Shown here one piece after another: positions 2,590 to 28,190 of a DNA stretch of 32,000 bases; positions within the stretch are counted from its first letter, which is position 1; each line of letters begins with the position of its first letter. Source of the stretch: an uncultured Oscillospiraceae bacterium. GTDB taxonomy: Bacteria > Bacillota > Clostridia > Oscillospirales > Oscillospiraceae. Made by a program: the position numbers and the translations under genes. The stretch lies in assembly GCA_934661135.1 (NCBI GenBank), contig CAKUJA010000004.1, forward strand, positions 8,814 through 40,813, given 5' to 3'. Below the pieces are notes generated by a model. It made no database searches. It was not told where the DNA came from and saw nothing but the letters and a program-made list of their open reading frames with translations.

Positions 2590-2603
2590 GCGCCCACCTC
2601 CTC

Positions 2604-3602: not shown

Positions 3603-3638
3603 GGTGCACGACCTCACTTTCCAAACACTTGTGCGCTT

Positions 3639-4597: not shown

Positions 4598-4625
4598 GGC
4601 ACAGGTTCCTCTCTGCTTCTTTCAT

Positions 4626-4677
4626 CCGCACCATCGCAGGAGCCGCAACCCTCCGGCTCCGTTCGCGATTGATGCGG
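4626..4677 (-). promoter_or_regulatory. Long stem-loop immediately 3' of the major pilin gene (no U-tract)
   Basis: In the minus-strand RNA, CCGCAUCAAUCGC...GGAGCCG-GAGGGUUG-CGGCUCC...GCGAUGGUGCGG forms an inner perfect 7-bp stem plus an outer imperfect stem. This fits a transcript stabiliser or partial terminator between pilA and pilD. Confidence 0.4.
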
Positions 4678-4697
4678 GTTGTAATGGGGTTCGGTGA

Positions 4698-5090: not shown

Positions 5091-5172
5091 GGTAAAAGAA
5101 CTCCTTTTACAAAATTTAATGTTATGCGTATCCGCCCGGGAGGGTTGTGCGCCGGGAGGTTAACGACTAAGA

Positions 5173-6381
5173 TTAGATCATGCTGCCGTACATGGAGAAC
5201 ATCGGCAGGTAGACAGCCAGCAGTAAGATCACCGTGACAATGGCAAGGCCGATTGTGATGGCCGGTTCGAGCAGGGCGAGGAGCCGGTCGGTCAGGATGG
5301 AGACCTCGTTGTCGAAATAGGCGCCGATGACGGTGAGGGTCTGCTCGAGATTGCCGGAGCGTTCGCCAACACCGGTCATTTCGGTCAGCATTTTGGGGAA
5401 GCAGGGCGACTCGGCCATGCAGTCGACCATGCTGCGCCCCTGCTCCACGCCCTGGCGCACGCTGCGAACGGCGCGGGCGACGGCGTAGTTGGCGACGACG
5501 TTCGAGGTGACCTCGAGCGCGCGGACAATCGGCAGGCCGGCGGTGAGCATCGTGGCCATGGCGGAGGCGAACTGCGAAGCGGCGTTCATGCTGTGCAGCC
5601 TGCGCAGCGGCGAGCGCTTCAGCTTGCCCTCGTCCTGCCGCAGGCGGCCACTGTCGGTTTTGCGCAGCAGCACGCGGATAAGCCAGATCAGAAGCGCCGC
5701 GCCGAGCAGAAGCCACCAGTCGTTCGTCATAAAGCGTGAGAAGGCGATCAGCCCCTTGGTGATGCCGGGAAGCTCAGCGCCGAGTTCTTCAAAGGTTTTT
5801 GTGAACATCGGGACGGCGACGAGCATGATGATGAGAAAGACGATGACGGCTACAAACAGGACGATGACCGGGTAGGTCAGCGTGCTGACGACTTTGGCGC
5901 GCGTCTTTGCGGATTTATCGTAGTAGGTGTGCAGGCGGTCGAAGCAGGTTTCGAGCGTACCGGCCTGTTCGCCGGCGCGGACGGTTTCGACAAACGTCGC
6001 GGGGAGGGTCGGGCAGTTGTTTTCAAAGCTCTGGGCAAGGCTGTATCCGCCGGAGACATCCTCGGCCACCTTTTCCAGCATCCGCCGGAGTTCCTTGCTC
6101 TTGGCCTGCGCAGCGACCATCTCGACGCAGCGCACCACCGGAAGGCCGGACGTGAGGATGATGGAAAACTGGGAGCAGAGGATGGCCAGCTCCTTGTCTT
6201 TGAGCTTGAGCCTGCCCGACTTGGCGGCCGACGCTGTGCTCTCCTTAACCGGCTCAATCTTCGTGATGATGGAGCAGGTGTCGCGCAGGCGCGCGACGGC
6301 TTCATACTCGTTGTACGCCTGAATGACGCCGGAGACCTTTACGCCGTCCTCCGAAAGGCCTTTGTACTTGTAGGTTGTCAA
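5173..6381 (-). CDS. pilC: Type IV pilus platform protein PilC (GspF family)
   Basis: 402 aa with two GspF-type repeats and TM helices. TTG start with GGGAGGTG 7 nt upstream. Confidence 0.9.
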   Translation of the reverse strand: MTTYKYKGLSEDGVKVSGVIQAYNEYEAVARLRDTCSIITKIEPVKESTASAAKSGRLKLKDKELAILCSQFSIILTSGLPVVRCVEMVAAQAKSKELRRMLEKVAEDVSGGYSLAQSFENNCPTLPATFVETVRAGEQAGTLETCFDRLHTYYDKSAKTRAKVVSTLTYPVIVLFVAVIVFLIIMLVAVPMFTKTFEELGAELPGITKGLIAFSRFMTNDWWLLLGAALLIWLIRVLLRKTDSGRLRQDEGKLKRSPLRRLHSMNAASQFASAMATMLTAGLPIVRALEVTSNVVANYAVARAVRSVRQGVEQGRSMVDCMAESPCFPKMLTEMTGVGERSGNLEQTLTVIGAYFDNEVSILTDRLLALLEPAITIGLAIVTVILLLAVYLPMFSMYGSMI

Positions 6382-6402
6382 GGCTGTTCACCTCCCGACG
6401 GG

Positions 6403-7464
6403 TTAAAACCGCCGATTTGCACCGGATTGGAACGCTTCGCGGTCACGGCAGCAGGAAAGCGCCGTCTCATAAGAGACCGTGCCGTCACGAACCATGTGCT
6501 GGAGCGCGCCGTCCATCGTGACGCTGCCGTTCTGGGCGTTCATTGTGATAAAGCTGTCGATCTGCGGGGTTTTTCCCTCGCGGATGAGATTGCGGATAGC
6601 ACTGTTGACGACCATGACCTCGCAGGCTGCTGCGCGGCCGCGACCGCTTTTACGCGGGAGGAGCTGCTGCGAGACGATGGCACGGAGCGTGGCGGACACT
6701 TGCAGGCGGATCTGCCGCTGCTGCCCCTCGGGGAACACGTTGACCATGCGGTCGATGGAATCGGCCGCGGAGTTGGTGTGCAGCGTGGCAAAGACCAGAT
6801 GGCCGGTCTCAGCGGCAGTGAGCGCCGTCTCGATTGTGGGCAGGTCGCGCATCTCGCCGATCAGGATGACGTCCGGATCTTCGCGGAGGATGGCGCGCAG
6901 GCCGTCGGCATAGCTGCGGGTGTCCGTGCCGATCTCGCGCTGGTTGATGATGCACTGATCCGGCGTGTAGAGATACTCGATCGGGTCCTCCAGCGTGATG
7001 ATGTGGCTCTTTCGGGTGTGGTTGATACGGTTGAGCAGCGCGGCCAGCGTCGTCGACTTGCCGGAGCCGGTCTCGCCGGTGACAAGCACGATGCCGCTGC
7101 GATAGTCGGGAAATTCGGAGATGACGGGCGGAAGCTCCAGCTCCTCAAGCTCCGGGATATGATCGGCCAGAATGCGGATGGCCGCCGAAACAGCGCCGCG
7201 CTGTCGGAACAGATTGATTCTCGTGCGCGCGCCGCAGAGAAAGCTGCGCGACAGATCCAGCTCACCGATGCGCTCCATCGCGGCGTATTCATCGCCGGCC
7301 AGCGCACGGGCGTAGACCTCGCAGTCCTCATGGGACAGCGGCTCGGTGGTGAGCGAACGGATGCTGTCGTCGACGCGGCATTTCACCGGCAGACCGCAGA
7401 CAATATGGATGTCGGACGCGCCGGACTCCTGTCCGCGCGCAATGAGTTCTTCCATGTCGAGCAT
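6403..7464 (-). CDS. pilT: PilT-type retraction ATPase
   Basis: 353 aa. N-terminal GASDIHIV, Walker A GETGSGKST, Asp/His boxes, and short PilT-size length. Confidence 0.9.
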   Translation of the reverse strand: MLDMEELIARGQESGASDIHIVCGLPVKCRVDDSIRSLTTEPLSHEDCEVYARALAGDEYAAMERIGELDLSRSFLCGARTRINLFRQRGAVSAAIRILADHIPELEELELPPVISEFPDYRSGIVLVTGETGSGKSTTLAALLNRINHTRKSHIITLEDPIEYLYTPDQCIINQREIGTDTRSYADGLRAILREDPDVILIGEMRDLPTIETALTAAETGHLVFATLHTNSAADSIDRMVNVFPEGQQRQIRLQVSATLRAIVSQQLLPRKSGRGRAAACEVMVVNSAIRNLIREGKTPQIDSFITMNAQNGSVTMDGALQHMVRDGTVSYETALSCCRDREAFQSGANRRF

Positions 7465-7471
7465 AGCTACC

Positions 7472-9163
7472 TCAGTCTACTGTCGAGTTGATCGCCTTGG
7501 CTGCTTCCGCCGCGGTGGTTTCGCCGCGCAGCACCAGATCGCGGCAGTTTTCGCGCATCGTAACAAAATTGCCCTCGCGCACGGCGGCATATAGCTCATC
7601 GTAGGACGCGCCCTCGCTGATGAGCCGGCGCACCTTGCCGCTGACGGTCAGGATTTCAAACACCGCGCGGCGGCCGCGATAGCCGGTATGGTAGCATTCC
7701 TCACAGCCTTCGCCGCGGTAGAACTGCGTGTCGGAGTCCGCCGGCAGACCGAGCAGCTCCAGCTCCCCGGCGTTCGGCCGGTAGGCCTTTTTGCAGTGCG
7801 GGCAGACCTTACGCACAAGGCGCTGCGAAATGACGCCGCGCAGCGCACTGGAAATCAGATACAGCTCGACGCCGATGTCGACCAGGCGGTCGATCGCGGC
7901 GACAGAATCGTTGGTATGCAGGGTGGAGAGCACCAGATGGCCGGTGATCGCGGAGCGGATGGCGATGGCGCCGGTCTCGCCGTCGCGGATTTCGCCGACG
8001 GCGATGATGTCCGGGTCCTGGCGCAGAATCGCGCGCAGACCGACCGCGAACGTCATACCGGTTTTCTCGTTGATCTGACACTGGTTGACGCCGGGGATGT
8101 TGTATTCCACCGGATCTTCGAGCGTCATAATATTGGTCTCCTCGCTGCAAAGCTCCTGGAGCATGGCGCACATGGTCGTCGACTTGCCGGAGCCGGTGGG
8201 ACCGACAAGCAGGATGACGCCGCTACTGTTTTTCAGCAGCGCTTCATACTTGGCAAGGTCATCGCCCTCGAGACCGATTGTGCGGCTCGTGATATGCTGC
8301 TGCGACTTATCGAGCAGACGGAGCACGACCTTCTCGCCGTAGACCGTGGGCATGGAGGAGATACGCAGATCGATCTCATGCTGGCGGACGCGCACCATCG
8401 CGCGGCCATCCTGCGGGAGCTTGTGCTCGGAAATATTCATGCCGCCCATGATCTTCAGGCGGGAGACGACGGTGCTTTGCAGATTGGCCGGCACCGTGAG
8501 GATTTTGCGCAGAATGCCGTCGATGCGCATTCGGACGACCATCTCGCCGTCCTGCGGCTCGAGGTGGATGTCGCTGGCGCGCTCGGTGACGGCGCGCTCG
8601 ATGACGGAGTTGACGAACCGGATTGTCGGCGCGGCGGCTTCCGCGTCGACCCGCTGCGCCATCTGGACAGGGACAATGTCGTTGGAGGACGAGCCAGCCT
8701 CGCGCTTCATCTCCTCGATGGCGCGCGCCGTGCCCTCGCTGCCGTAGAGCGTGGCAATGGCCTGCTCGGTGGCGCGGCGCGTGGCGATCATCGGAACGAC
8801 CTGCTTGTGGCTGGCCGACTTGATCTCCTCCTGCGCAACGAAGTTCAGCGGGTCGCTCATGGCGACGAACAGCTCGTCCTTGACCAGCTTGACCGGCACG
8901 ACGCAGTATTTCTTCGCAATCGCACGCGGGACGAGCTTCGCCAGCTCGACCGGAATTGAGACGGCGGTCAGGTCGATAAAATCGACGCCGAGCTGCATTT
9001 GCAGCGCGTCGATGAGCTGCCGCTCCGTGATGATACGGTTATCGATCAGAACGTCACCAAGGCGCTGGCCGGTCTGCTTCTGAAGCGCCAGCGCTTCGCT
9101 GAGCTGCGCCTGATCGATCGCGCCCGCCGCAATCAGCAGATCGCCGAGCCGCATATATGCCAT
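7472..9163 (-). CDS. pilB: PilB/GspE-type pilus extension ATPase with N-terminal MshEN-like domain
   Basis: Start trimmed to MAYMRLGDLL at 9163, with GGAGGTG 5 nt upstream. Walker A GPTGSGKST. C-terminal tetracysteine CPHC..CEEC. The N-terminal repeat pair RLGDLLIAAGAIDQAQLSEALALQ and RLGDVLIDNRIITERQLIDALQMQ is present. Confidence 0.9.
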   Translation of the reverse strand: MAYMRLGDLLIAAGAIDQAQLSEALALQKQTGQRLGDVLIDNRIITERQLIDALQMQLGVDFIDLTAVSIPVELAKLVPRAIAKKYCVVPVKLVKDELFVAMSDPLNFVAQEEIKSASHKQVVPMIATRRATEQAIATLYGSEGTARAIEEMKREAGSSSNDIVPVQMAQRVDAEAAAPTIRFVNSVIERAVTERASDIHLEPQDGEMVVRMRIDGILRKILTVPANLQSTVVSRLKIMGGMNISEHKLPQDGRAMVRVRQHEIDLRISSMPTVYGEKVVLRLLDKSQQHITSRTIGLEGDDLAKYEALLKNSSGVILLVGPTGSGKSTTMCAMLQELCSEETNIMTLEDPVEYNIPGVNQCQINEKTGMTFAVGLRAILRQDPDIIAVGEIRDGETGAIAIRSAITGHLVLSTLHTNDSVAAIDRLVDIGVELYLISSALRGVISQRLVRKVCPHCKKAYRPNAGELELLGLPADSDTQFYRGEGCEECYHTGYRGRRAVFEILTVSGKVRRLISEGASYDELYAAVREGNFVTMRENCRDLVLRGETTAAEAAKAINSTVD

Positions 9164-9185
9164 GGTAACACCTCCGTACACACAA

Positions 9186-9214
9186 AGAAAGGGTGCGATT
9201 TCTCGCCCCTTTCT
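9186..9214 (-). promoter_or_regulatory. Terminator-like hairpin with GAAA tetraloop in the pilB 5' leader, abutting the RBS
   Basis: Minus-strand RNA is AGAAAGGG-GCGA-GAAA-UCGC-A-CCCUUUCU, followed by UUGUGUGUACGGAGGUG(RBS). That is 12 bp with one bulge and a U-rich 3' side. Confidence 0.4.
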
Positions 9215-9390
9215 CTCCCGTAATATCAATTTTACGTCTATTTTTTACCATATTCCGTCCGATTTTTCAACACAGTCCGGCAAATTTCGTCGGTTCCGTT
9301 AAGAAAACGTGAAGTTGCACAGTTATCGTTGAAATCTTTGTGGAAATTTTATAAAAAGTGTTCAGGAATATCTTGGAATTTATTCCTGAT

Positions 9391-19208: not shown

Positions 19209-19285
19209 GGACAGTTAGCTCAGCTGGTATGAGCACATGCTTGACGTGCATGGGGTCACAGGTTCGAGTCCTGTACTGTCCACCA
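19209..19285 (+). tRNA. tRNA-Val (anticodon GAC), CCA encoded
   Basis: Cloverleaf read by hand. Acceptor stem GGACAGT/ACTGTCC, D stem GCTC/GAGC, anticodon stem CATGC/GCATG with loop TTGACGT, T stem ACAGG/CCTGT with loop TTCGAGT, then ACCA. Confidence 0.95.
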
Positions 19286-19286
19286 T
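19237..19286. repeat. attL: 50-bp direct repeat (3' part of tRNA-Val)
   Basis: ATGCTTGACGTGCATGGGGTCACAGGTTCGAGTCCTGTACTGTCCACCAT is identical to 28141-28190. Confidence 0.9.
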
Positions 19287-19287
19287 A

Positions 19288-19316
19288 CCGCACTTCTTCG
19301 GAAGTGCGGTTTTTCT
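19288..19316 (+). terminator. Intrinsic terminator after tRNA-Val
   Basis: CCGCACTTC-TTCG-GAAGTGCGG followed by TTTTTC. Confidence 0.75.
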
Positions 19317-19440
19317 TTGCCTAAAAACAGCTTTTTAACAAGATTCACACTGCTTTTCTGAATCTTTTTCATAATTTTGATTTTACTTTAAAACACGTTT
19401 TTAACATCTTTGAAGCATCTTTTTTGCCGAAAATACGACA

Positions 19441-19485
19441 GTGGCACGCTTCCGATGTGGCACCTATGTGGCACCCGCGTGGCAC
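19441..19485. repeat. Four direct GTGGCAC repeats (candidate integrase arm-type sites), left arm
   Basis: Copies start at 19441, 19457, 19468 and 19479; the last three are 11 bp apart. The array sits just 3' of the int stop. Confidence 0.6.
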
Positions 19486-19491
19486 CTGTTT

Positions 19492-20589
19492 TCAGCCAAA
19501 CGCGGCGCAGACCTTTTGCGCGGTGCTTTGCTGGCGCGATTCGTGCTGATAATGGGTATAAACGCGCAGCGTCATATTGACCGTGGCGTGTCCTGCGAGA
19601 TATTGAATCTCCTTGATATCCAGCCCGCTCTCAAATAACCGTGTGATGTAGGTATGTCTGAGTCGGTGCGGATGAACGTGGAAATCCAACGTGCGGACAA
19701 CCTTGGAGTGCGGCGCGGTCGTCCAGAGATCGGCAGGATCATCAACCGTGCGGTTCTCGATCATTTGAAGCAGACACTTGAGACTGCTTTTGGAAAGCGG
19801 TTTTCCATTTTCCATGTGCAGCACATAAAGGCCCTTTGCGCCTTTGCGCTCCTTTACAAGCTCTGCAAACAGCGTGGGCGGTATCGGAATATCCCGGACT
19901 GCGGCAGAGGTCTTGAGGGTGTCGCTGACGGTCGTTTGCGCGTTTGTGAGCAGCGCATTGTGCCGAACCTGAATCACACCCGCAGGGAAATCAACGTCCG
20001 ACCACATCAGCCCGCAAAGCTCTCCGCGCCGCATACCGGTTTGAAGTGCCAACAGGCAGAAAAGATATGCTCGCGTTCCTCTCGTCGCGTCCAAAAGGCG
20101 CTGAGACTGTTCAGCGGTGAGTGGGATTTCTTCCTGCGTTGTCTTGCCGCCGATTCGCAAGGTTGCCGGGACTGGCGATTTTGCAATCAGGTTGTTATCC
20201 ACGGCTGCATTAAAAATCCCGCGAAGCACCTGCACCACCTTATTATTCAGGCTCTTGCTCATTTTGGATACAGACGCAATGACAAGCTGAATTTGTATCT
20301 GATTGACCTTTTTGAGCGGCACGTCCCGCAGATAAGGATAAATGTGATTGTTCAGCACGTTTTCAATAGCAAGCAAAGAGTTTTGCCGAAGATACGGCAC
20401 CTTATAGACGCGAAGCCAGAGCGCGGCATATTCTCCAAAAGTAGAGTTGTCGGAAACGTCAAGACCCGCTCCAATCTGTGTCAATAGCTCCTGTTTTTTC
20501 TGTTCCAATCCCTCCTGACTGACAGAACGAATCCACTTGCGCTTGCCGTTCGGAAGCGTGATGGAAGCCCTATAAAGTTTGTTTTTCAT
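19492..20589 (-). CDS. int: Tyrosine site-specific integrase
   Basis: 365 aa. N-terminal SAM-like domain. Catalytic Arg context MRRGELCGL, then HRLRHTYITRL (H-x-x-R) and LAGHATVNMTLRVYTHY (His, Tyr). GGAGAG RBS. Confidence 0.9.
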   Translation of the reverse strand: MKNKLYRASITLPNGKRKWIRSVSQEGLEQKKQELLTQIGAGLDVSDNSTFGEYAALWLRVYKVPYLRQNSLLAIENVLNNHIYPYLRDVPLKKVNQIQIQLVIASVSKMSKSLNNKVVQVLRGIFNAAVDNNLIAKSPVPATLRIGGKTTQEEIPLTAEQSQRLLDATRGTRAYLFCLLALQTGMRRGELCGLMWSDVDFPAGVIQVRHNALLTNAQTTVSDTLKTSAAVRDIPIPPTLFAELVKERKGAKGLYVLHMENGKPLSKSSLKCLLQMIENRTVDDPADLWTTAPHSKVVRTLDFHVHPHRLRHTYITRLFESGLDIKEIQYLAGHATVNMTLRVYTHYQHESRQQSTAQKVCAAFG

Positions 20590-20650
20590 TGTATTCTCTC
20601 CTTATGTAAGCAGCTACATAAGGCTATGGGAAATCATACGGTTTTTCTTG

Positions 20651-20684
20651 CGGCATGAAGCAGTTTCGCTTCGTGCCGTTTTTT
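20651..20684 (+). terminator. Plus-strand intrinsic terminator upstream of the element's rightward genes
   Basis: CGGCATGAAGC-AGTTTC-GCTTCGTGCCG (one G-U pair) followed by TTTTTT. It would stop read-through running antisense to int. Confidence 0.5.
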
Positions 20685-20733
20685 GTGCCTCTCCGTATAT
20701 GTACCATTATAACGACAGGAGCGAAAAAATCAA

Positions 20734-20742
20734 TGCTATAAT
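20734..20742 (+). promoter_or_regulatory. Extended -10 promoter element TGcTATAAT
   Basis: TG at 20734-20735 and TATAAT at 20737-20742, about 65 nt upstream of ATG 20807. Confidence 0.4.
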
Positions 20743-20806
20743 AGGGGCATGAAGCGTGAGGCAAGCAAGCTCACACAAAATAAATAACAAAAAGGAGATT
20801 AAACGT

Positions 20807-21223
20807 ATGAACGCAGATTTGATGAATGGAACGATTGTAATGTCGCAGAATGAGGCACGGAAAGCCGGTAGATTTGGGACAGACGAATATGAGATGTTGG
20901 CAAAGCTGATGCAGCAATTCCCCGCTTTCCGCATTGAAGTTGTGAAGCCCTCCGCAAAGAGAACAGACCATTTCAAGGGTCTGACACGTGCTTATATGAA
21001 ACAGTATGTTGAAAGCCACGATTCGAAGAAGCTGGCAGATTTCTATGCGCTGTGTGGTCTGGATGAGAGCGGAAAAAAGCAGGAATTGGCTGCGGCTGCT
21101 TCCTATGGCGAGCTGAAAATGTGGTTCCTTGAGCAGTTTCCTGAAATCGAGCAGATGAGTGAGAACATCAGAAGGATCATGGATAGAACACGAGAAGCAC
21201 GTGCGGCGCGGAAAGCGTCGTAA
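20807..21223 (+). CDS. Hypothetical protein, paralogue 1 of a tandem pair
   Basis: Start trimmed to MNADLMNGTIVM, with AAGGAG 9 nt upstream. Shares NG-IVM..EY..L....P....KGLT..YM..Y....WFLE.(F/Y)P with the next ORF. Confidence 0.7.
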   Translation: MNADLMNGTIVMSQNEARKAGRFGTDEYEMLAKLMQQFPAFRIEVVKPSAKRTDHFKGLTRAYMKQYVESHDSKKLADFYALCGLDESGKKQELAAAASYGELKMWFLEQFPEIEQMSENIRRIMDRTREARAARKAS

Positions 21224-21247
21224 GCCAGCAGGCAGGAGGAACATAAG

Positions 21248-21715
21248 ATGAAAGTCACGCTTAAAGTTGACCATGAGAATGGTCGTATTGTGATGAATAG
21301 AACATTTGCAAATCTGGCGGCCAATGTTTTCAGCGAAGAATATAAAATCTTGCAGGGAGCCCGGCAGGACTATCCGACTTACGTGGTAGTGCGCCGGACA
21401 ATCAAAAAGAACCCGAACCGTGAATGCTATCGCGGGCTGACCTATGACTATATGCGTGACTACATCAGCCGCTACGAGCCAGAAGAAACCCGTGAAAGCG
21501 TCTGCGCCGAGTTGGAGGACATGATCCAGATTTCCCGCTGTCACAGCCGCTGCAAGCGTTATCCTGTTATCAAACAGTGGTTCTTGGAAAAGTATCCGGA
21601 CGTAAAAAACTTTGGGATGGAAGCATTTGCGGAAGAAGAAACAGAGAACATCACAACGCTTTCTGCTCTTGCAGCCGATCCCGCGCCGGACGAGATCAAG
21701 GGCAAATCTGCCTGA
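21248..21715 (+). CDS. Hypothetical protein, paralogue 2 of a tandem pair
   Basis: 155 aa with AGGAGGAAC RBS. Collinear similarity to 20807-21223 (ENGRIVMNR.., RGLTYDYMRDY, KQWFLEKYPDV). Confidence 0.7.
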   Translation: MKVTLKVDHENGRIVMNRTFANLAANVFSEEYKILQGARQDYPTYVVVRRTIKKNPNRECYRGLTYDYMRDYISRYEPEETRESVCAELEDMIQISRCHSRCKRYPVIKQWFLEKYPDVKNFGMEAFAEEETENITTLSALAADPAPDEIKGKSA

Positions 21716-21807
21716 TTCGATTTTTTTAATAAAATATTATATAATATTTATAGAAAGTTAAGGGAAATCAAAACTTTCAATCAAAAAATGAAGGGTGGTG
21801 AACCATT

Positions 21808-22074
21808 GTGAACAAAGGATATGATTCGTTTTCCAAGCAGTTCTTTATTGACCTGCGCAAAAATGGAGACTATGCCTTGGCGAATATGTTAAAGAAATAG
21901 CTCTTTATGGACTATTTAAACGATTCCAAACGGATGGACGAGCTTGTATAGCGCGTTACGGATAAAGTAGAAGCTGATTTTACATCAGGCAAAATCAGCG
22001 TGACCCTCGAATCAAAGCCGTTGGACGATGCAATCGAGGAAATCAATAACCGTCTAAAAAACTTGGGGCAGTAA
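21808..22074 (+). pseudogene. 88-codon frame interrupted only by two in-frame TAG codons (pseudogene or amber read-through gene)
   Basis: GTG at 21808 follows AAGGGTGGTG. The frame reads VNKGYDSFSKQFFIDLRKNGDYALANMLKK-TAG(21898)-LFMDYLNDSKRMDELV-TAG(21949)-RVTDKVEADFTSGKISVTLESKPLDDAIEEINNRLKNLGQ-TAA(22072). Confidence 0.5.
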
Positions 22075-22099
22075 GCTGCTCCAAGAGAAAGGAAAAAGT

Positions 22100-22573
22100 A
22101 TGCCTACAACTGTACCAAATCAGCGGACGATCTGCGTTCATCGGGAAAAAGCCTCCGCAGATTTCCTAGGTATAAAAAATCGGAATTGGATGGCGGCATC
22201 CCGTGACCTTGGCGCACACGCGCTGCGGCTCTATCTGTATCTGGCTGCAAACGCAAATAACTATTCATTGGCGCTGTCGCCTGCTGCACTCTTGGAGGAA
22301 ATTGGAATGCCGCGTTCCACTTATCATGACCAATTCAAGGTGCTGGAATCCAAGGGCTATCTGATTCACAGAAGTGGAAATACATACGACTTCTATGAAA
22401 AGCCGCAGACGAGCCACGACATACAAGAAAAGAGTGAGTTGTCGTCCGGCAGTCAGGAAAAACCGCCGAACGTAGATTTTACACCGACGCAGGATACAGA
22501 AATAAATATTATAAATAAAAAAAATAATAACGAGGGAGTTTTAGAAAATGCAAGACCTGTGTTCAAATTTTAA
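22100..22573 (+). CDS. Winged-helix DNA-binding protein (possible replication/initiator-type)
   Basis: 157 aa. Contains LGAHALRLYLYLAANAN..LSPAALLEEIGMPRSTYHDQFKVLESKGYL, a wHTH pattern. The C-terminus is low-complexity. GAAAGGAAAAAG RBS. Confidence 0.55.
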   Translation: MPTTVPNQRTICVHREKASADFLGIKNRNWMAASRDLGAHALRLYLYLAANANNYSLALSPAALLEEIGMPRSTYHDQFKVLESKGYLIHRSGNTYDFYEKPQTSHDIQEKSELSSGSQEKPPNVDFTPTQDTEINIINKKNNNEGVLENARPVFKF

Positions 22574-22583
22574 AGAGACTTTT

Positions 22584-22781
22584 ATGAAGATAATGAAGGC
22601 TAAGAAAATGACAAATATTATCAACTTGATTATGGCCGAGACTGAACGAGATCGAGATAGAGAACACTACGAGGAACTGATGACAGCGGCATATAACCTC
22701 TGGGGATTTCTCAATTACGATCTGGGATGTGCTAACCCGCCAGACGAGATATGGGAAGGAAGCGGCAAGTTTGAATTTTGA
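22584..22781 (+). CDS. Small hypothetical protein
   Basis: 65 aa from MKIMKAKKM. The track start at 22548 overlaps the previous gene. RBS is weak. Confidence 0.4.
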   Translation: MKIMKAKKMTNIINLIMAETERDRDREHYEELMTAAYNLWGFLNYDLGCANPPDEIWEGSGKFEF

Positions 22782-23208
22782 GCAGCGAATCTATCAGTCC
22801 CTAAAGCGCAAGGGACTGGCAGCGCAATTTGAATGTGCGGGCATTTATGCGATCCTACTGGATGGCAAGATTGTTTACATAGGAAAGAGCGTCAATATCC
22901 TTGCGCGGATGGCATAGCATTACGCACAGCTTGCACAAGGCAAGGAACATAAGTACCGCATACTCGCTGAGGCTACGCGCAGCGGACGCAAAATGTGCTT
23001 CACTGTGCTTTACCGAGCCTAGCAGAGCGGCTATGACGCAATTACAGAAGAAATCGGTCAGAAGGAGGGCGAGTATATCCGCCTCCACAGACCGCCGCTG
23101 AATCAATAGATACCAAAAGAAGAAAACTGGCGTCAGTTTCAGACGAATCGAAATGTGCAGAGCATTACACTGTCTGAGCTGCTGGAATATATAGGAGAAC
23201 AAAAATGA
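22771..23208 (+). pseudogene. GIY-YIG nuclease frame with three in-frame TAG codons (pseudogene or amber read-through gene)
   Basis: One frame contains AGIYAILLDGKIVYIGKS..ARMA-TAG(22915)-HY....FTVLYRA-TAG(23020)-QSGYDAITEEIGQKEGEYIRLHRPPLNQ-TAG(23107)-IPKEENW...GEQK-TGA(23206). The GIY..YIG, Arg and E..YI....P..N motifs are all in register. The start is uncertain: TTG 22771 after GGAAGGAAG, or GTG 22729. Confidence 0.6.
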
Positions 23209-23486
23209 ATTGTGCAACTGAGAATAAAGTGATAGCTTTGATCCTGAAATATCCTTCGATGGAAAAGCTGCTGGACAACGTTTCTGATGAAATGCTGCAA
23301 GAAATGATAGAATGCTATGAATTGGAATTTCCGGAACCGCTGGATTTTAAAAACCGGGATACGCGCCGTGTGATCTGCTACAGTTTCATTCTGCGCCTAT
23401 ACACCCTGCGGCTCGACGATTGCATAGCAGAAAGCAATGCGTTATTTGAAATCTTGGATTCCTGCTTGGATTATGTACTGCTCTGA
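23205..23486 (+). CDS. Hypothetical protein
   Basis: 93 aa. ATG overlaps the preceding frame's TGA (ATGA). AGGAGAA RBS. Confidence 0.6.
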   Translation: MNCATENKVIALILKYPSMEKLLDNVSDEMLQEMIECYELEFPEPLDFKNRDTRRVICYSFILRLYTLRLDDCIAESNALFEILDSCLDYVLL

Positions 23487-23499
23487 GAAAGCGCGAAGT

Positions 23500-23543
23500 A
23501 AGAGGCGACAGCACTTTGATGCTGCTGCCTCTTTTGTTTTTTT
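23500..23543 (+). terminator. Intrinsic terminator ending the element's leftward module
   Basis: AAGAGGCGACAGCA-CTTTGA-TGCTGCTGCCTCTT (14-position stem with one mismatch and one G-U pair) followed by TTGTTTTTTT. Confidence 0.7.
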
Positions 23544-23740
23544 GTGTCCCGTAATTGAAAATGGAATTGCCATTTCAGAATTATCCAGCCACACCCAAAG
23601 AGGACAGGGCAAACAAAAAAGATTTCTCCTGAAATACACCCCCCTGTCCTCAAAAGGGTGCTGCGCGTTTGCTGAACAGAATTTGCCGTGTATCCGGCTG
23701 ATTTTTGGCTCTTGGAGCAGGCAGAAAAGTGTATAGGAAA

Positions 23741-23953
23741 TCAGTTGTTTTCTTGGACGTATTCAATCAGGTCGCCAGGCTGACATTCCAACAGTCCGCA
23801 GATACGTTCAATGTTCTCCCAAGACAGCCCTTTTCCCTCTCTCAGCTTTTGGAGCGTGGATTGGCTCAGTATGTTTTCTTTCCGCAGAACGTAAGTTGTA
23901 TATCCTTTTGCTTTCAGTGCCTCTAAAACGTCAATCTTAAATTGCATTGGCAT
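23741..23953 (-). CDS. XRE-family helix-turn-helix regulator
   Basis: 70 aa. Contains GYTTYVLRKENILSQSTLQKLREGKGLSWENIERICGLLECQPGDLIEY, a typical Cro/CI-type HTH. Confidence 0.85.
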   Translation of the reverse strand: MPMQFKIDVLEALKAKGYTTYVLRKENILSQSTLQKLREGKGLSWENIERICGLLECQPGDLIEYVQENN

Positions 23954-23993
23954 AAAACCGCCTCCTTTTCCATTGTCCTTATTTTATCATAGG

Positions 23994-24074
23994 ATATGCA
24001 CGAAAACAAGTGTACAAATATCACAGAAATATGCTCGAATTATCGTGTATATTGCCAATTGAATATGCACGAAA
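23994..24074. promoter_or_regulatory. Three phased direct repeats ATATGC(A/T)CGAA (candidate operators) in the divergent region
   Basis: Copies at 23994-24005, 24029-24039 (one mismatch) and 24063-24074, spaced 35 and 34 bp. The third lies in the spacer of the rightward promoter. Confidence 0.5.
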
Positions 24075-24087
24075 CATAGTCTATAAT
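24059..24087 (+). promoter_or_regulatory. Promoter TTGAAT-17-TATAAT
   Basis: -35 hexamer at 24059-24064 and -10 hexamer at 24082-24087, upstream of ATG 24147. Confidence 0.5.
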
Positions 24088-24146
24088 ATAGACAGTTGAT
24101 AGAGATACCCACCAAACAAATTACCATCCAAAAGGAGACAGACAAA

Positions 24147-24425
24147 ATGAGCAAGAATGAAATCGTGAGCATGATTGAAACCATGAATAACTACGACGAG
24201 CTGGCAAGCAAAGCCAAGGCAAAGGCGGACGCCATCCGCGACGCGCTGAAAGAAGAAATGCTGCGGCTCGACACCGAGGAACTGAACGCGGGCGCTTACA
24301 TCCTCCGCTACACCAACATCATCAGCAACCGGTTCGACACCACCACCTTCAAGCGCCTGTATGCCGACCTCTATAAGGACTTCACCAAGGCCGTCAGCAG
24401 CCGCCGCTTCACAGTCAGCTACTAA
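24147..24425 (+). CDS. Hypothetical protein
   Basis: 92 aa from MSKNEIVSM, with AAAGGAGA 8 nt upstream. The track start at 24096 lacks an RBS. Confidence 0.65.
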   Translation: MSKNEIVSMIETMNNYDELASKAKAKADAIRDALKEEMLRLDTEELNAGAYILRYTNIISNRFDTTTFKRLYADLYKDFTKAVSSRRFTVSY

Positions 24426-24483
24426 CAGAAAAAACAAGCTCCGCGGGCAGGAAATGCCCGTGGAGTAGAAAGGACAGAGAGAT

Positions 24484-24774
24484 ATGTTGATATTCGATGA
24501 ATTGTGGAACGGGGCATTCAGCCCGTGTGAGCACCGCTATGAGCGGAACAGCGACTATGATATTGTCAGCCGCCGCATCAGCGCCCAGATGGATGTGCTG
24601 CGTCAGAACGCCTCCAAGAGACAGAAAAAGGTGTGGGAAGCCTATGACCGCGACTTGGCCGAGCGCGAAAATCTGGAACAGCAGGACGCTTATTATCAGG
24701 GCATTCGGTTCGGCGCACGGTTTATGCTGGACGTGCTTCTGGAACAGCCCGGCAGCTATGAGGCGCGGCGATGA
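24484..24774 (+). CDS. Hypothetical protein
   Basis: 96 aa. AGAAAGGACAGAGAG upstream. ATGA overlap with the recombinase gene. Confidence 0.6.
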   Translation: MLIFDELWNGAFSPCEHRYERNSDYDIVSRRISAQMDVLRQNASKRQKKVWEAYDRDLAERENLEQQDAYYQGIRFGARFMLDVLLEQPGSYEARR

Positions 24775-25361
24775 AAGCAGGCTATGCCAGATGCTCCACC
24801 AACGAGAGCAGGCAGGACATTGAACGGCAGGTGCGGGAGCTGAAACAGGCGGGTGCGGAAACTGTATATCTGGAATATGAACACGGCGACGCGGCAGTCA
24901 AGGAACAGCTGTCCTTGCTTCTAGAACAGGCACAGGCGGGTGATACTATCATCACGTTAGAAGTCTCCCGCCTTGCCCGCTCGACCAAGCAGCTCTGTGA
25001 AATCATTGAAGCCATCAGCCGGAAGCACCTGTGTCTTGTCATTGTCGGCAGTATCACAATGGACTGCCGCAGAGGACACGCAGACCCGATGACAGAGGCT
25101 TTTTTGCAAATGGCAGGCGTGTTCAGTCAGTTGGAGCTTGCTATGATACGCGCAAGGGTGCGCTCCGGAATGGCAAATGCCAGAGCCAAGGGCAAGCAGA
25201 TCGGCAGACCGCACCTGACCAGCGATGACATTCCTGCATCGTTTCTGCGGCATTATCCGGCGTATAAGGGCAGACAGCTCAATATCAGTGAGTTCGCAAG
25301 GGTGTGTAATCTCAGCCGGACAACCGTTTATAAGTATATTGACCTTTTGGAGAATGGGTAA
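24771..25361 (+). CDS. Small serine recombinase (resolvase/invertase family)
   Basis: 196 aa starting MKAGYARCSTNESRQD (catalytic Ser context). Contains LEVSRLARS and a C-terminal HTH (ISEFARVCNLSRTTVYKYI). Confidence 0.9.
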   Translation: MKAGYARCSTNESRQDIERQVRELKQAGAETVYLEYEHGDAAVKEQLSLLLEQAQAGDTIITLEVSRLARSTKQLCEIIEAISRKHLCLVIVGSITMDCRRGHADPMTEAFLQMAGVFSQLELAMIRARVRSGMANARAKGKQIGRPHLTSDDIPASFLRHYPAYKGRQLNISEFARVCNLSRTTVYKYIDLLENG

Positions 25362-25363
25362 AA

Positions 25364-25423
25364 CAAGTCATACATTTAACAGATATAGGGAAATGATTAC
25401 CTTTCTGTTGGATGTATGACTTG
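25364..25423. promoter_or_regulatory. Long hairpin / inverted repeat right after the serine recombinase gene
   Basis: CAAGTCATACAT (25364-25375) and ATGTATGACTTG (25412-25423) form a perfect 12-bp inverted repeat, with inner AACAG/CTGTT pairing. This may be a convergent terminator or a recombinase site. Confidence 0.45.
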
Positions 25424-25460
25424 AATTTGTTTATCCTGCTGGCGTTTCAGCTGGTTCTGA

Positions 25461-26213
25461 TTATTCTGACGTCGTATAACCTTCTGGGAGGACTACTGTT
25501 CCTGAAACTTCAAGGACATCAATCTTAAACCGAGGCTCCAAGTTTGGAGTATAGGATGTCCATTTGTAAGTTTTATAATGCATACTCTCACTTATTGTCC
25601 AATTTCCGTCATATGGTAGTGTGATTTTGAAATCTTTGTAGTTCCTCCATCCGCGGACTGTCCCATTTGACCAATAATCCTCATCTTGAACATTCCCAGT
25701 ATCAAATTCCCAACCGGAATTACAATCGTATTGATTTGCTTCTTCGTCCCACGTTGAGTGTATACTCATCGAAACTCGCAGCTTGATTGAAACATTTTCG
25801 AAATGACTATTCGTTTGATTTATAGTGGATATCGTTGCTGTTCCTGAACCGCTATAGTCCCAATACACATGGAAAAACGGATCGAATTCACGATCGGTCT
25901 TATAATCATTTGATGATACTTCAATTTTTAAGTAGTCTTGAATGTTTTCAGTTGTAAGTTTAATTGGCTTTATCTTTTTAAGCTGTGCTTCTGCTTCCTT
26001 AAGTGTTGAATAATTTTCGACACTATCCTTTTCTTCTTTACTCAATGCATCATACGCTTTCCTTGCATCCGTAATCTGCGTTTCACTATCCAGCGTCACT
26101 TCGCCTATGGATGCAATAGACTTTTCTACAGACTTCACCGCTTTGCTTTTTCCACAGGCGCACAGCGACAAAAGCATAACTGCACATAGCACCAATGCAA
26201 CAGCCTTTTTCAT
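25461..26213 (-). CDS. Lipoprotein of unknown function (AT-rich cargo gene)
   Basis: Start trimmed to MKKAVALVLCAVMLLSLCAC/GKS (signal peptide plus lipobox), with GGGGTGG upstream. The C-terminal region is rich in Trp and Tyr and looks beta-rich. Confidence 0.8.
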   Translation of the reverse strand: MKKAVALVLCAVMLLSLCACGKSKAVKSVEKSIASIGEVTLDSETQITDARKAYDALSKEEKDSVENYSTLKEAEAQLKKIKPIKLTTENIQDYLKIEVSSNDYKTDREFDPFFHVYWDYSGSGTATISTINQTNSHFENVSIKLRVSMSIHSTWDEEANQYDCNSGWEFDTGNVQDEDYWSNGTVRGWRNYKDFKITLPYDGNWTISESMHYKTYKWTSYTPNLEPRFKIDVLEVSGTVVLPEGYTTSE

Positions 26214-26226
26214 CCCTATTCCACCC

Positions 26227-26376
26227 CTATTTTGTAATTTCATTGAATTTTAACGCTTTTTCGCATAACTGGCGGACGGCCTCAACAAACGAGGAAATCC
26301 CTTTTTCTTTTTGATACGCAACAATTCTTCTAATCAACTGTGCATCCTTATCACCAAAAGTCACACCTTTGCCCAT
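26227..26376 (-). CDS. Small ribbon-helix-helix-like protein
   Basis: 49 aa, below the track cutoff: MGKGVTFGDKDAQLIRRIVAYQKEKGISSFVEAVRQLCEKALKFNEITK. GGAGGT lies 7 nt upstream. Stop codon is TAG. Sits directly upstream of the lipoprotein gene. The RHH call is by pattern only. Confidence 0.5.
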   Translation of the reverse strand: MGKGVTFGDKDAQLIRRIVAYQKEKGISSFVEAVRQLCEKALKFNEITK

Positions 26377-26508
26377 TGTAAATACCTCCATTTGCGCTTT
26401 TCTTTTCTCTTGGCAATTCTATTATATAACATTTTGTTTTATATTTCAATATAACAAACTGTTTTCTCTATACTTTTCTGTGAAACTTTCACAAAGGAGC
26501 ATAGGAAA

Positions 26509-26733
26509 ATGTATAGACGCATCCGGGATTTGCGCGAAGACTGCGACCTGTTTCAAAAAGACCTTGCCGAGTATTTACAGTGTTCGCAGGTCTGCTATTC
26601 CCACTATGAGATGGGCAAGCGCGACATTCCAACAGACGTTTTAATCAAGCTGGCAAGCTTCTATCATACCAGCACCGATTATCTCTTGGGGCGAACGGAT
26701 GAAAAGCAGGCGTATCCCGCATCCAAGAGCTGA
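26509..26733 (+). CDS. XRE-family helix-turn-helix regulator
   Basis: 74 aa: IRDLREDCDLFQKDLAEYLQCSQVCYSHYEMGKRDIPTDVLIKLASFYHTSTDYLLGR. AAAGGAG RBS. Confidence 0.85.
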   Translation: MYRRIRDLREDCDLFQKDLAEYLQCSQVCYSHYEMGKRDIPTDVLIKLASFYHTSTDYLLGRTDEKQAYPASKS

Positions 26734-26739
26734 AACACC

Positions 26740-26768
26740 AGCCGCAGCACAAAACCGCTGCGGCTTTT
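26740..26768 (+). terminator. Intrinsic terminator after the XRE gene
   Basis: AGCCGCAGC-ACAAAACC-GCTGCGGCT followed by TTTCC. An extended -10 element TGcTACAAT follows at 26778-26786. Confidence 0.55.
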
Positions 26769-26807
26769 CCGTATTTGTGCTACAATGAATAAAACCGGAT
26801 GTAGAGG

Positions 26808-27956
26808 ATGAAGATCATGGAAAAGGCACGCAACGAATACGGTTTTGAAGTTTTCGAGGGCGGGCATGGCCGGAAAGAAAACCAGAAGCTCAAGCCGTAT
26901 CTTGTGCTGCAATACCTCCTGCGGCAGTCGGACGAGAATCACGTCATATCAGCCACAAACATTGTCGGCTATTTGCAGGAAATCTGCGGGATTTACGCAG
27001 AGCGGCGCGGCATCTACAGGGATATCGACGAGATTAACAAGGCCATGCTTATCGTCGAATACGGAATTGACGTGCATGAGGCAGAAGCGCGGCTGGACGA
27101 GGATGAGGGTGAGAAAACCATTGTCTATGACAGGAGCAAAAAGGGCTTTTATGTGCGGCAGCGGCATTTTGACCTGACAGACATCCGGCTTCTGGCCGAG
27201 TGTGTCTATTCTGCGAAGTTCATTGAAAAGGGGCAGGCCGACCGGCTTGTTGATGTTGTTGCAGAGTTTGTCAGTGAGGAACAGGCAAAGACGATCCGCC
27301 ATGACGCGCTTCTGACCGACCGTGTGAAAACAGACAACAAGAGTGTCCTTATCAATCTGAGTGAGATCAGCGACGCTTTGAGCCATGAGCAGAGCGGGCA
27401 GCGCCATGCGCCGGAGAAGATCAGTTTCAAATATCTTGAATATACGATTGACGATCTGGATAAGCCTAAGGAGCGGCGCAAGGGAACACGATATATTGTC
27501 AGCCCATACCGACTACTGATTAACGATGGGAATTATTATCTGCTTGGATACGATGAAGAAAAGCACAAGATGCTGACCTATCGCGTTGACCGGATGAAAG
27601 ACGTTCGGTGCATGGGCGAACCAAGAGAGGGCGAAGAAGCGGCAGCAGCGATTGAAATCAGCAAATATGCGCAGCAGTGCTTTTCCATGTTCGGCGGGCA
27701 GACGACGCGCGTACAGATTCGGTTTATCAATATGCTTCTGGATACTGTGATTGACCGCTTTGGAAAGACCGGCGTGGAATATGCCAAGCTGGATGACAGG
27801 CATTTTACCATCACTGCGGAAGTCCGTGTCAGCGATCCGTTTTTCTCTTGGGTCTGCACATTCGGCAGGCGGGCAAAAATTCTGTATCCTGATTCTGTTG
27901 TTGCATCATTCAAAGCATACCTTGATAAAATTCGGGAAATGTATGAAAGTTGTTAA
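26808..27956 (+). CDS. HTH-WYL-domain transcriptional regulator
   Basis: 382 aa; ATG 26817 is an alternative start. N-terminal wHTH, then a WYL core (YIVSPYRLLINDGNYYLLGYDEEKHKMLTYRVDRMKDV) and a C-terminal WCX-like extension. Confidence 0.85.
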   Translation: MKIMEKARNEYGFEVFEGGHGRKENQKLKPYLVLQYLLRQSDENHVISATNIVGYLQEICGIYAERRGIYRDIDEINKAMLIVEYGIDVHEAEARLDEDEGEKTIVYDRSKKGFYVRQRHFDLTDIRLLAECVYSAKFIEKGQADRLVDVVAEFVSEEQAKTIRHDALLTDRVKTDNKSVLINLSEISDALSHEQSGQRHAPEKISFKYLEYTIDDLDKPKERRKGTRYIVSPYRLLINDGNYYLLGYDEEKHKMLTYRVDRMKDVRCMGEPREGEEAAAAIEISKYAQQCFSMFGGQTTRVQIRFINMLLDTVIDRFGKTGVEYAKLDDRHFTITAEVRVSDPFFSWVCTFGRRAKILYPDSVVASFKAYLDKIREMYESC

Positions 27957-27986
27957 AAAGAAAAAGTAAAGCTGTTTGAAAGACAG

Positions 27987-28028
27987 AAAAAGGTTGCAGA
28001 AAAGATGTTATCTTCCTGCAACCTTTTT
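27987..28028. terminator. Strong hairpin terminator at the right end of the element
   Basis: AAAAAGGTTGCAG...CTGCAACCTTTTT, a perfect 13-bp stem with extra inner AAGAT/ATCTT pairing. Confidence 0.6.
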
Positions 28029-28059
28029 GCTTCTTCCCATAGCCTTATTTGGTTTGTGT

Positions 28060-28077
28060 GTGGCACCCGTGTGGCAC
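28060..28077. repeat. Two direct GTGGCAC repeats (candidate arm-type sites), right arm
   Basis: Copies start at 28060 and 28071, 11 bp apart. They have the same orientation as the left-arm array. Confidence 0.55.
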
Positions 28078-28140
28078 CTGCACGGTTTATGAATGGCGGA
28101 AATCCTTGCAATATCAATGCTTTGGGGCGTCAGCCCCATG

Positions 28141-28190
28141 ATGCTTGACGTGCATGGGGTCACAGGTTCGAGTCCTGTACTGTCCACCAT
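28141..28190. repeat. attR: 50-bp direct repeat (tRNA-Val 3' fragment, not a gene)
   Basis: Identical to 19237-19286. The acceptor 5' strand and D arm are not present upstream. Confidence 0.9.

Follow-up and report, generated by a model that had tools for sequence, protein, structure and literature searches.

The question raised by this locus is whether stop codons inside the reading frame of a bacterial gene are signs of decay or sense codons. The window, that is, the complete stretch of 32,000 nucleotides analyzed here (NCBI GenBank assembly GCA_934661135.1, contig CAKUJA010000004.1, positions 8,814 to 40,813), comes from an uncultured gut bacterium of the Oscillospiraceae and contains an integrated element of 8.9 kb, in which a GIY-YIG nuclease gene (22771-23208, + strand) is intact except for three in-frame TAG codons, at 22915-22917, 23020-23022 and 23107-23109. 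A previous, sequence-only reading of the window had proposed that these codons are read through or recoded rather than products of decay. Comparison with relatives of the gene supports this proposal: the interrupting stops are almost exclusively TAG, they mostly occupy sites of glutamine (Gln), and the gene evolves under purifying selection.

The nuclease frame comprises 145 codons and translates as LNFEQRIYQSLKRKGLAAQFECAGIYAILLDGKIVYIGKSVNILARMA, HYAQLAQGKEHKYRILAEATRSGRKMCFTVLYRA, QSGYDAITEEIGQKEGEYIRLHRPPLNQ and IPKEENWRQFQTNRNVQSITLSELLEYIGEQK, the first three segments each followed by TAG and the last by the terminal stop; the internal stops are TAG only, and translation reveals neither TAA or TGA nor a frameshift. 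The GIY-YIG signature is contained in this single frame, with GIYAILLDGKIVYIGKS, ARMA-TAG-HY and EGEYIRLHRPPLN all present, and the catalytic Glu/Asn half remains in register past the first two TAGs (E99 and N110 lie downstream of both), precisely as the sequence-only reading had described. The conserved residues of the family (GIY at 24-26, YIG at 36-38, R46, E99 within EGEYIR and N110 within PPLN) occupy positions that are invariant or nearly so in the family alignments. When the TAGs are represented by X or Q, the protein matches Pfam PF01541 (GIY-YIG) over residues 23-108 with 26.8 bits against a cut-off of 22.6, and it matches the phrog_1111 endonuclease with an E-value of 8.5e-8. The best match of the family profile to a PDB sequence is T4 endonuclease II (2WSH, E 2.5e-8), and a search of 50,697 GenBank phage records recovered no homologues other than denA genes. 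An AlphaFold2 (AF2) model of P0001, a database protein 84% identical to the window nuclease, has a mean confidence (pLDDT) of 93.7, and its top PDB hits in Foldseek, all with probability 1.00, are the UvrC N-terminal domain, T4 endonuclease II and the I-TevI catalytic domain. Translation may begin at TTG 22771, which has the better ribosome-binding site (RBS) and is the start implied by an 83-amino-acid (aa) database entry, P0014; the alternative is GTG 22729, with which relatives that have a longer N-terminus align.

Other claims of the sequence-only reading about the neighborhood were also confirmed on reanalysis, with one exception. The terminal TGA of the nuclease gene (23206-23208) overlaps the ATG (23205-23207) of the next open reading frame (ORF), g23205, which is preceded by the RBS GGAGAA; two further TAGs, at 21898 and 21949, interrupt the frame at 21808-22074, which ends in TAA; and all seven ORFs of this left unit (7/7) end in TAA or TGA. 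TAG was said to serve as a stop in three other genes of the window, and it does so in the pilD-like gene at 3800-4597 (- strand), which demonstrates its use as a stop by the host, and in the RHH-like ORF at 26227-26391 (- strand); the third, an 'rrf2' gene, was not located.

A protein search with the nuclease returned 358 homologues. The analysis was then made from DNA because the contigs encoding P0001 carry TAG where the database protein has Q. P0001, a seemingly intact protein of 154 aa, was translated by its source with TAG as Gln, and the contigs cannot be translated into it under the standard code: loci L006-L011 (e.g. L006:3135 and L006:3459) carry TAG at FE-TAG-R and LNQ-TAG-IPKE, where P0001 has Q. 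Truncated database entries, in turn, stop exactly at the TAG sites of the window gene. A 'Q' in large collections of predicted proteins can thus hide an amber codon. The loci examined came from contig look-ups (L001-L011), 80 contigs of GTDB species representatives, 4 IMG/VR contigs and 80 metagenome contigs; the pooled set consists of 182 loci with 158 distinct nuclease sequences.

Across these 158 sequences, we found 251 in-frame TAGs against only three other stops within the high-scoring segment pairs (HSPs), one of which is a true terminator. The two genuine interruptions by other stops are a TAA in L052 (L052:1410) and a TGA in L159 (match codon 15); these two copies are probably true pseudogenes and provide a rough gauge of the rate of decay. 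At least one TAG is present in 143 of the 158 sequences (15 have none, 58 one, 63 two, 21 three and one has four), and when the full reading frame is counted, the most divergent copies, L021 and L094, have 4-5. No frameshifts were seen in the nuclease gene, the alignments being full-length single HSPs. The frameshifts or mixed stop types that, according to the sequence-only reading, would mark ordinary decay are therefore not what the homologues display, with 251 TAGs against two genuine TAA or TGA. A pattern reproduced across the family to this degree lies far outside what chance would give.

The TAG sites are, to a large extent, Gln sites. At alignment columns that contain TAG, other sequences have Gln in 33% of the cases compared to a background of 3.4%, a 10-fold enrichment. 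The column of the first TAG of the window gene (A-Q-H-Y) is the most common site, with 40 TAGs and otherwise mostly CAG, and together with the column of the third (LNxQIPKE; 16 TAGs) makes up the two most common sites. The sequence-only reading suggested that consistent Gln in homologues would support recoding, and when TAG-bearing sequences are excluded, Gln is found in 27 of about 48 homologues at the first site and in 70 of 72 at the third; at the second site, the homologues have Lys or Gln. Among 148 cases in which a TAG was compared with the nearest relative lacking it, that relative had CAG 56 times and CAA 23 times (79/148 together). Sister alleles of the three-TAG gene have CAG at the first site or a fourth TAG, and CAG and TAG toggle among alleles that are more than 90% identical.

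The sequence downstream of the TAGs is, furthermore, constrained. In the comparison of the window gene with L005, the ratio of nonsynonymous to synonymous substitution rates (dN/dS) is 0.12 for the gene as a whole; for the sequence after the first, second and third TAG, it is 0.20, 0.27 and 0.32, respectively. Against L001, a 96%-identical copy of the element, the proportions of nonsynonymous (pN) and synonymous (pS) differences are 0.021 and 0.162, for a pN/pS of 0.13. As a separate observation from the latter comparison (22771-23208 with L001:2578-3015), the pS of 0.16 in the nuclease gene exceeds that of its neighbors (0-0.07), and by this measure the nuclease allele was brought in by recombination as a patch, the rest of the left arm being near-identical. 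The three-TAG allele itself was found in independent metagenome assemblies (L122, 98% identical to the window gene, as well as L115, L119-L121, L123 and L124), and because of this recurrence an assembly or sequencing error is excluded.

These observations bear directly on the simplest explanation, under which the genes are ordinary pseudogenes, shaped by a C-to-T bias at CAG, or else the TAGs are a sequencing or assembly artefact. One transition suffices to turn CAG into TAG, and CAG is a plausible origin for three of the five sites in the window. However, in the neighboring TAG-free genes, hundreds of codons are CAG and none is TAG, indels were not seen, TAA and TGA are nearly absent, and purifying selection persists downstream of the TAGs; as for an artefact, identical TAGs occur in many independent assemblies. 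We consider this explanation barely credible. Judged by the sequence comparisons, TAG behaves as a third Gln codon in this gene, and decay, mutational bias and artefact are excluded. Pyrrolysine was also rejected as the reading of TAG: the TAG columns align with Gln and secondarily with Lys or Glu, and include no dedicated position. A special read-through context was rejected as well, given that the flanks of TAG resemble those of CAG, in counts dominated by a few recurrent sites.

Use as a Gln codon could, in principle, reflect leakiness that is intrinsic to the host. Under this alternative, there would be no dedicated suppressor, the TAGs attenuate expression, and a near-cognate tRNA-Gln yields a constitutive trace of toxic nuclease and a larger amount if release factor 1 is in short supply. 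Most of the genes indeed have only one or two TAGs, the nuclease is related to a host-DNA-nicking enzyme, so that a very low dose could serve, and there is no tRNA with a CUA anticodon in cis in the 191 sources searched (see below) or in the small recoded phages inspected. Typical bacterial read-through, however, is at most 1% per site, and at such rates the yield would be negligible for the 22 of 158 genes with 3-4 TAGs, for the full frames of L021 and L094 with 4-5, and for the three-TAG gene of the window. Moreover, the base that follows TAG (A, 0.41; C, 0.42) has frequencies similar to those after CAG and provides no special leaky context, and the free exchange of TAG with Gln codons points to efficient decoding. 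Leaky read-through thus appears improbable to us.

The partition of TAG among the genes of the element and its relatives is sharp. The share of TAG among the codons TAG, CAG and CAA is 0.26 in the nuclease gene, where 78 of 88 distinct sequences contain TAG, 0.31 in the small ORF g22548 (5/7), 0.67 in the small ORF orfA (2/2) and 0.07 in rep, which encodes a replication-initiator-like protein (26/58). In the integrase, g20756, g21248, both helix-turn-helix (HTH) regulators, the phrog_6244-like ORF, DUF6809, the resolvase and WYL, the share is essentially 0 over approximately 1,200 Gln codons: the sole TAG in these families is at codon 4 of one integrase HSP, the integrases contributing 258 Gln codons. 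The main TAG site of rep aligns with the invariant Q of PNQR. Both TAGs of orfA are kept in L001-L003, and small ORFs upstream of rep in L057, L069 and L074 bear TAG and are equivalent to orfA in position. In the sequences compared, TAG is accordingly confined to the orfA-rep-GIY-YIG operon, and the genes for integration, regulation and cargo fit the standard code. Avoidance of TAG as the terminator of the TAG-free genes was considered as an additional signal and dismissed: TAG terminates 8 of 182 of these genes, but about 1 in 13 host genes of the window as well, so that this measure does not discriminate.

The 8.9 kb island (approximately 19287-28190) is an integrated element, as shown by a perfect direct repeat of 50 nt in which the 3' part of the host tRNA-Val(gac) gene is duplicated. 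That gene (19209-19285, + strand; found by ARAGORN and with 65.5 bits to the Rfam tRNA family) provides the attachment site with its 3' part; the left core, attL, is at 19237-19286 and the right core, attR, 100% identical, at 28141-28190, as delineated by a repeat search. The GC content drops to about 45% between 19.3 and 28.2 kb, compared to about 60% in the flanks. No virion genes (capsid, tail, terminase or lysis) and no homologues of terS or of capsid-remodelling genes were detectable in the element with PHROGs and Pfam, several of its ORFs having no assigned function, and a PADLOC scan for defence systems returned WYL plus marginal matches only. The element belongs to a large family of elements, each of about 5-13 kb, in Oscillospiraceae and other Clostridia. 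The relatives share the integrase, the two paralogues g20756 and g21248, which match no known family, rep, the nuclease, HTH, the phrog_6244-like ORF, DUF6809, the resolvase and WYL, and differ in cargo; they abut host tRNA genes for Val, Pro, Thr, selenocysteine (SeC), Arg, Lys and others. Separately, we note tRNA-SeC(tca) beside relatives at L147:3739-3835, at 12045-12141 of L153, L155 and L156, and at L160:6504-6600. The minimal relatives, of about 5-7 kb, consist only of recombinases (two at 5 kb), one or two small ORFs, orfA, rep and the nuclease gene. The nuclease gene is paired with rep in 67 of the first 95 related loci. Cultured carriers include Oscillibacter valericigenes An860, Pseudoflavonifractor phocaeensis An901, Pseudoflavonifractor sp. 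HCP28S3_F10 and Hominicoprocola fusiformis CLA-AA-H188. The records concerned are NZ_JAFBIV010000002.1 and NZ_JAFBIV010000004.1 for An860, NZ_JADYTU010000038.1 and NZ_JADYTU010000002.1 for An901, and JBBNGO010000006.1 for CLA-AA-H188.

What, then, decodes TAG? The statement of the sequence-only reading that the window lacks a suppressor tRNA holds, tRNA-Val(gac) being the only tRNA that ARAGORN finds there. Beyond the window, none of the 93 tRNAs that ARAGORN detects in 1.99 Mb from 191 sources (window, related loci and phage contigs) has a CUA anticodon, and an Rfam scan of the element at E ≤ 1 produced only tRNA-Val and noise. The element therefore lacks a feature expected of genetic code 15 (TAG=Gln), a suppressor tRNA or code-switching gene on the same element. 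Because the minimal 5-kb relatives hold so few genes, there is no room for a code-switching system in them either. The paralogues g20756 and g21248 were considered as a universal code-switch factor and ruled out by their absence from these minimal relatives; they have no match in Pfam, PHROG, PADLOC or NCBIfam, 169 unnamed homologues, and an AF2 model with no match in the PDB. With no CUA tRNA, no other Rfam match and no room in the minimal relatives, decoding would have to be supplied in trans.

A plausible type of supplier is known from Oscillospiraceae. TAG-recoded temperate phages such as Topaz (22±3 kb) integrate at Oscillospiraceae tRNA genes and have TAG-free integrases, just 35-40% of the recoded phages encode a suppressor tRNA, and it has been speculated that recoding lets a phage sense co-infecting phages that use the same code (10.1101/2021.08.26.457843). 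For crAss-like phages, decoding of TAG as Gln has been validated by metaproteomics (PMC9523058).

Taken together, the results fit a simple model that we consider probable, in which the orfA-rep-g22548-nuclease-g23205 operon (21808-23486) is written in code 15 on a satellite- or plasmid-like element, with the suppressor acting in trans. The sense use of TAG is a comparative finding; suppression in trans is what we infer from it. Under this model, in the integrated state, release factor 1 of the host would stop translation at the first TAG, leaving 48 residues of the nuclease and 30 of orfA; active nuclease would not be made, and g23205, coupled by the ATGA overlap, would probably be silent as well. 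An efficient amber suppressor supplied in trans would render the operon translatable, the likely occasion being the replication of a TAG-recoded phage, and the likeliest source a co-resident or infecting TAG-recoded phage of the type known from Oscillospiraceae. The nuclease, a nickase of the endonuclease II type, would then work with the initiator, either on the DNA of the element itself or on DNA that competes with it. Recoding would, in this manner, keep the nuclease and the replication module silent and make their expression dependent on whether the code of the cell has been switched. Since the host stops at TAG and the DNA examined encodes no CUA tRNA, a suppressor would be required for the nuclease and orfA to be made, as well as for rep in many relatives; g23205 is probably gated too, if the overlap couples its translation to that of the nuclease. 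The close and long-standing association of the nuclease gene with rep speaks for a function within a replication or processing module, of which the nuclease would most likely be a working component, and against its being a free homing endonuclease.

Several observations weigh against this model or restrict it. Read-through of TAG to Gln is known here from comparison of sequences, and the satellite status of the element is a proposal drawn from its gene content. The rep gene is TAG-free in the window copy, so that in this copy gating would extend no further than to the nuclease and orfA and, probably, to g23205. In the nuclease gene, a TAG share of 0.26 is near that expected from neutral drift among three Gln codons, and gating may be a by-product of such drift. 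TAG-free nuclease genes are rarer than a Poisson distribution predicts (15 observed and about 32 expected), but this difference is uncorrected for phylogeny. No suppressor source emerged from the DNA examined. In particular, no CUA tRNA was found in about 23 of the 27 kb of one Topaz-like phage genome or in large parts of 11 relatives, and the Topaz-like contigs that carry a distant nuclease homologue, which we considered as helpers, were judged unconvincing for this host in view of their GC content (33-39%, compared to 60% in the host) and the lack of a detected suppressor tRNA. The nuclease gene occurs in only 4 of 2.9 million IMG/VR viral contigs, and the predicted circular (attP) junction, in which GGCGTCAGCCCCATG is joined through the 50-nt repeat to ACCGCACTTCTTCGG, was not found in JGI metagenomes.

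The comparison with the recoded phages Topaz and Garnet is instructive in both directions. Like these phages, the element has TAG at Gln positions, is integrated at a tRNA gene in a standard-code host of the Oscillospiraceae type, and combines a TAG-free integrase with a partition between standard-code and alternative-code genes; the absence of a suppressor tRNA is itself common among them. In contrast to the phages, it is only 8.9 kb long (relatives are as short as about 5 kb), with no capsid, tail, terminase or lysis genes identified; the recoded part is the replication/nuclease operon rather than the late structural and lysis genes; no code-switching machinery is present in cis in the 1.99 Mb of DNA from 191 sources; and TAG is absent from most of its genes, while under the standard code nearly every Topaz gene is broken up. 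The Topaz clade is recognized by its terminase phylogeny and some 22 kb of recoded structural genes, and the element, which has neither terminase nor structural genes, falls outside it. The only link to the Topaz-like contigs L094 and L103 is a distant nuclease homologue (35-36% identical). L094 is heavily TAG-recoded, with 12 TAGs in the gene for a tail protein of 1,856 aa and 10 in that for TerL, and L103 is recoded as well; L099 is not. Where the GIY homologue is located near terminase genes (L094 and L099), it lies a short distance upstream of them. The available parts of the small IMG/VR phages with nuclease homologues contain no suppressor tRNA. One IMG/VR phage fragment, L095, deserves separate mention: TAG is restricted to its early/replication block (270-3455), in six ORFs, including rep and GIY-YIG, with 1-4 TAGs each, and the segment L095:4103-11299, with an amidase-like ORF, terminase and other late genes, is TAG-free, the reverse of the usual recoding of late genes.

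The existence of these phage homologues raises the possibility that the module is merely in transit, i.e. that it was recently gained from a TAG-recoded phage, is non-functional in the element and has not yet decayed; the sequence-only reading, too, entertained recent acquisition from a recoded phage. Distant homologues of the nuclease do occur in the recoded contigs L094 and L103 and in a 96-kb viral contig, L092, and the nuclease gene is a recombination patch, with the pS of 0.16 set against at most 0.07 in its neighbors. Nevertheless, small elements that number well above one hundred and have diverged to 35-98% protein identity keep the operon and its TAG partition in a shared architecture, dN/dS values in the lineage of the element are 0.12-0.3, and only 2 of the 158 distinct copies have an interruption other than TAG. 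Such conservation of the TAG module under purifying selection, in a large family of small elements, makes recent acquisition less likely as the sole explanation, and we regard a module in transit as quite unlikely.

In its general organization, the element is reminiscent of phage satellites, namely the phage-inducible chromosomal islands (PICIs), P4-like satellites and PICI-like elements (PLEs). It shares with these a small tRNA-integrated island, an integrase, divergent HTH regulators, an initiator of its own, the lack of virion genes and, by the logic of the model, dependence on another element for expression; the PICI-like traits present comprise the integrase, the att repeats at tRNA-Val, the small size and the absence of identified virion genes. 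Nucleases are known as weapons in conflicts between satellites and their helpers, as in the case of NixI of PLE (PMC9410903); in the literature searched, NixI is not described as a GIY-YIG protein. Unlike the established satellites, the element has no recognized genes for packaging or redirecting of capsids, and the likeness is one of gene content. As a tentative extension of the model, possible but short of probable in our estimation, the elements of about 5-13 kb could form a new class of satellites or integrative plasmids of TAG-recoded phages, for which the altered code of the helper is the induction signal, a 'genetic-code lock'.

The nuclease resembles T4 endonuclease II (DenA) in being a single-domain GIY-YIG protein of about 140 aa, approximately 31% identical to the denA products of T4-like phages, with conserved fold and catalytic motifs. 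It differs in its genomic setting, the gene being linked to a winged-helix initiator on small elements or located upstream of terminase in small phages, and the degradation of host DNA is not a role that we would assign to the element nuclease from its sequence. A further relative is the plasmid pRGI00117 (locus L110; HG796263.1, from an uncultured bacterium), a circle of 7,167 bp that encodes a nuclease homologue with TAG at the site equivalent to AQHY. Most ORFs of this plasmid contain in-frame TAG, the GIY-YIG homologue spans the origin of the record, the RepB-like genes are TAG-free, and there is no tRNA. Unlike the element, pRGI00117 is a free circle that is not integrated, has a GC content of 34%, and its nuclease homologue shows only 30% protein identity. 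Its deposited annotation consists of 14 tiny coding sequences, the recoding having gone unrecognized.

The remaining genes and signals of the element complete the picture. The left arm starts with the tyrosine integrase gene (19492-20589, - strand; phrog_1 integrase, E 7.7e-63), with no internal TAG and a TGA end, followed on the + strand by g20756 (20756-21223) and its paralogue g21248 (21248-21715), both encoding conserved proteins and TAG-free, the latter in 33 distinct relatives; the AF2 model of the latter has a pLDDT of 77. Next come orfA (21808-22074; TAGs at 21898-21900 and 21949-21951, TAA end), rep (22100-22573; winged-helix, phrog_270 / phrog_186), g22548 between rep and the nuclease gene (22548-22781; TAG-free in the window copy), the nuclease gene and g23205 (23205-23486; 100% conserved in L001-L003), all on the + strand. 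A GC-rich hairpin followed by a T-run (23503-23545, + strand) is likely the terminator of the TAG-bearing operon; it was recognized by direct reading and is absent from the output of a consensus scan for promoters and terminators over 20500-24200, which returned nothing informative. A TAG-free XRE-type HTH regulator (23741-23953, - strand; PF13443 on the L001 counterpart) is divergent from a second unit (24096-25361, + strand) that is entirely TAG-free and consists of the phrog_6244-like ORF (24096-24425), DUF6809 (24484-24774) and a resolvase-type serine recombinase (24771-25361). The cargo on the - strand (25461-26391) includes a lipoprotein gene (25461-26243) and the RHH-like ORF with its TAG end, and the right arm (26509-27956, + strand) holds an XRE HTH gene (26509-26733) and a WYL/WCX regulator gene (26808-27956), both TAG-free.

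A few additional observations concern regulation and the flanks. Between the divergent HTH gene and the unit at 24096, a 29-nt direct repeat (23989-24017 and 24058-24086; 76% identical, spacing 69 nt) looks like an operator- or iteron-like arrangement, and a good match to -35/-10 promoter elements at 24059-24087 overlaps its second copy. The HTH regulator at 23741-23953 is only 61% identical to its counterpart at L001:3547-3759, with flanking genes 95-100% identical, which, at the sequence level, indicates that an immunity/regulator module has been swapped between otherwise near-identical elements. Directly after the tRNA-Val/attL repeat, at 19287-19315, there is a strong hairpin with a T-run (ACCGCACTTCTTCGGAAGTGCGGTTTTTC), which may be a terminator that the element gives to the reconstituted tRNA gene. 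In the host flank (1-9300), an apparent type IV pilus cluster, called from N-terminal sequence features only, comprises the gene at 3800-4597, which is prepilin-peptidase-like, a prepilin-like ORF (4698-5090) and large ORFs at approximately 7472-9229, all on the - strand.

The decoding phenomenon itself is known, code 15 being established in gut phages and prophages. What is new are the carriers, tiny tRNA-integrated elements with no virion genes identified or suppressor tRNA found, plus a free circle of 7.2 kb, and the nature of the recoded module, which is a replication/nuclease module and not the late genes. In the searchable literature, we found no link between satellites or plasmids and alternative codes, and a shared genetic code is not described there as a principle by which satellites sense their helpers. 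Annotation under the standard code splits or misses these genes, and pipelines mis-handle the whole family, given that genes are split or missed, P0001 was silently translated with TAG as Gln, and the plasmid record is fragmented. The lack of a suppressor in cis sharpens a question already open for phages, that is, how UAG is decoded when there is no suppressor tRNA, and the presence of the family in cultured isolates makes this question experimentally approachable. If the proposed class of elements is real, alternative codes would be in use beyond the phages themselves, in their parasites and in plasmid-like circles, of which pRGI00117 is an example.

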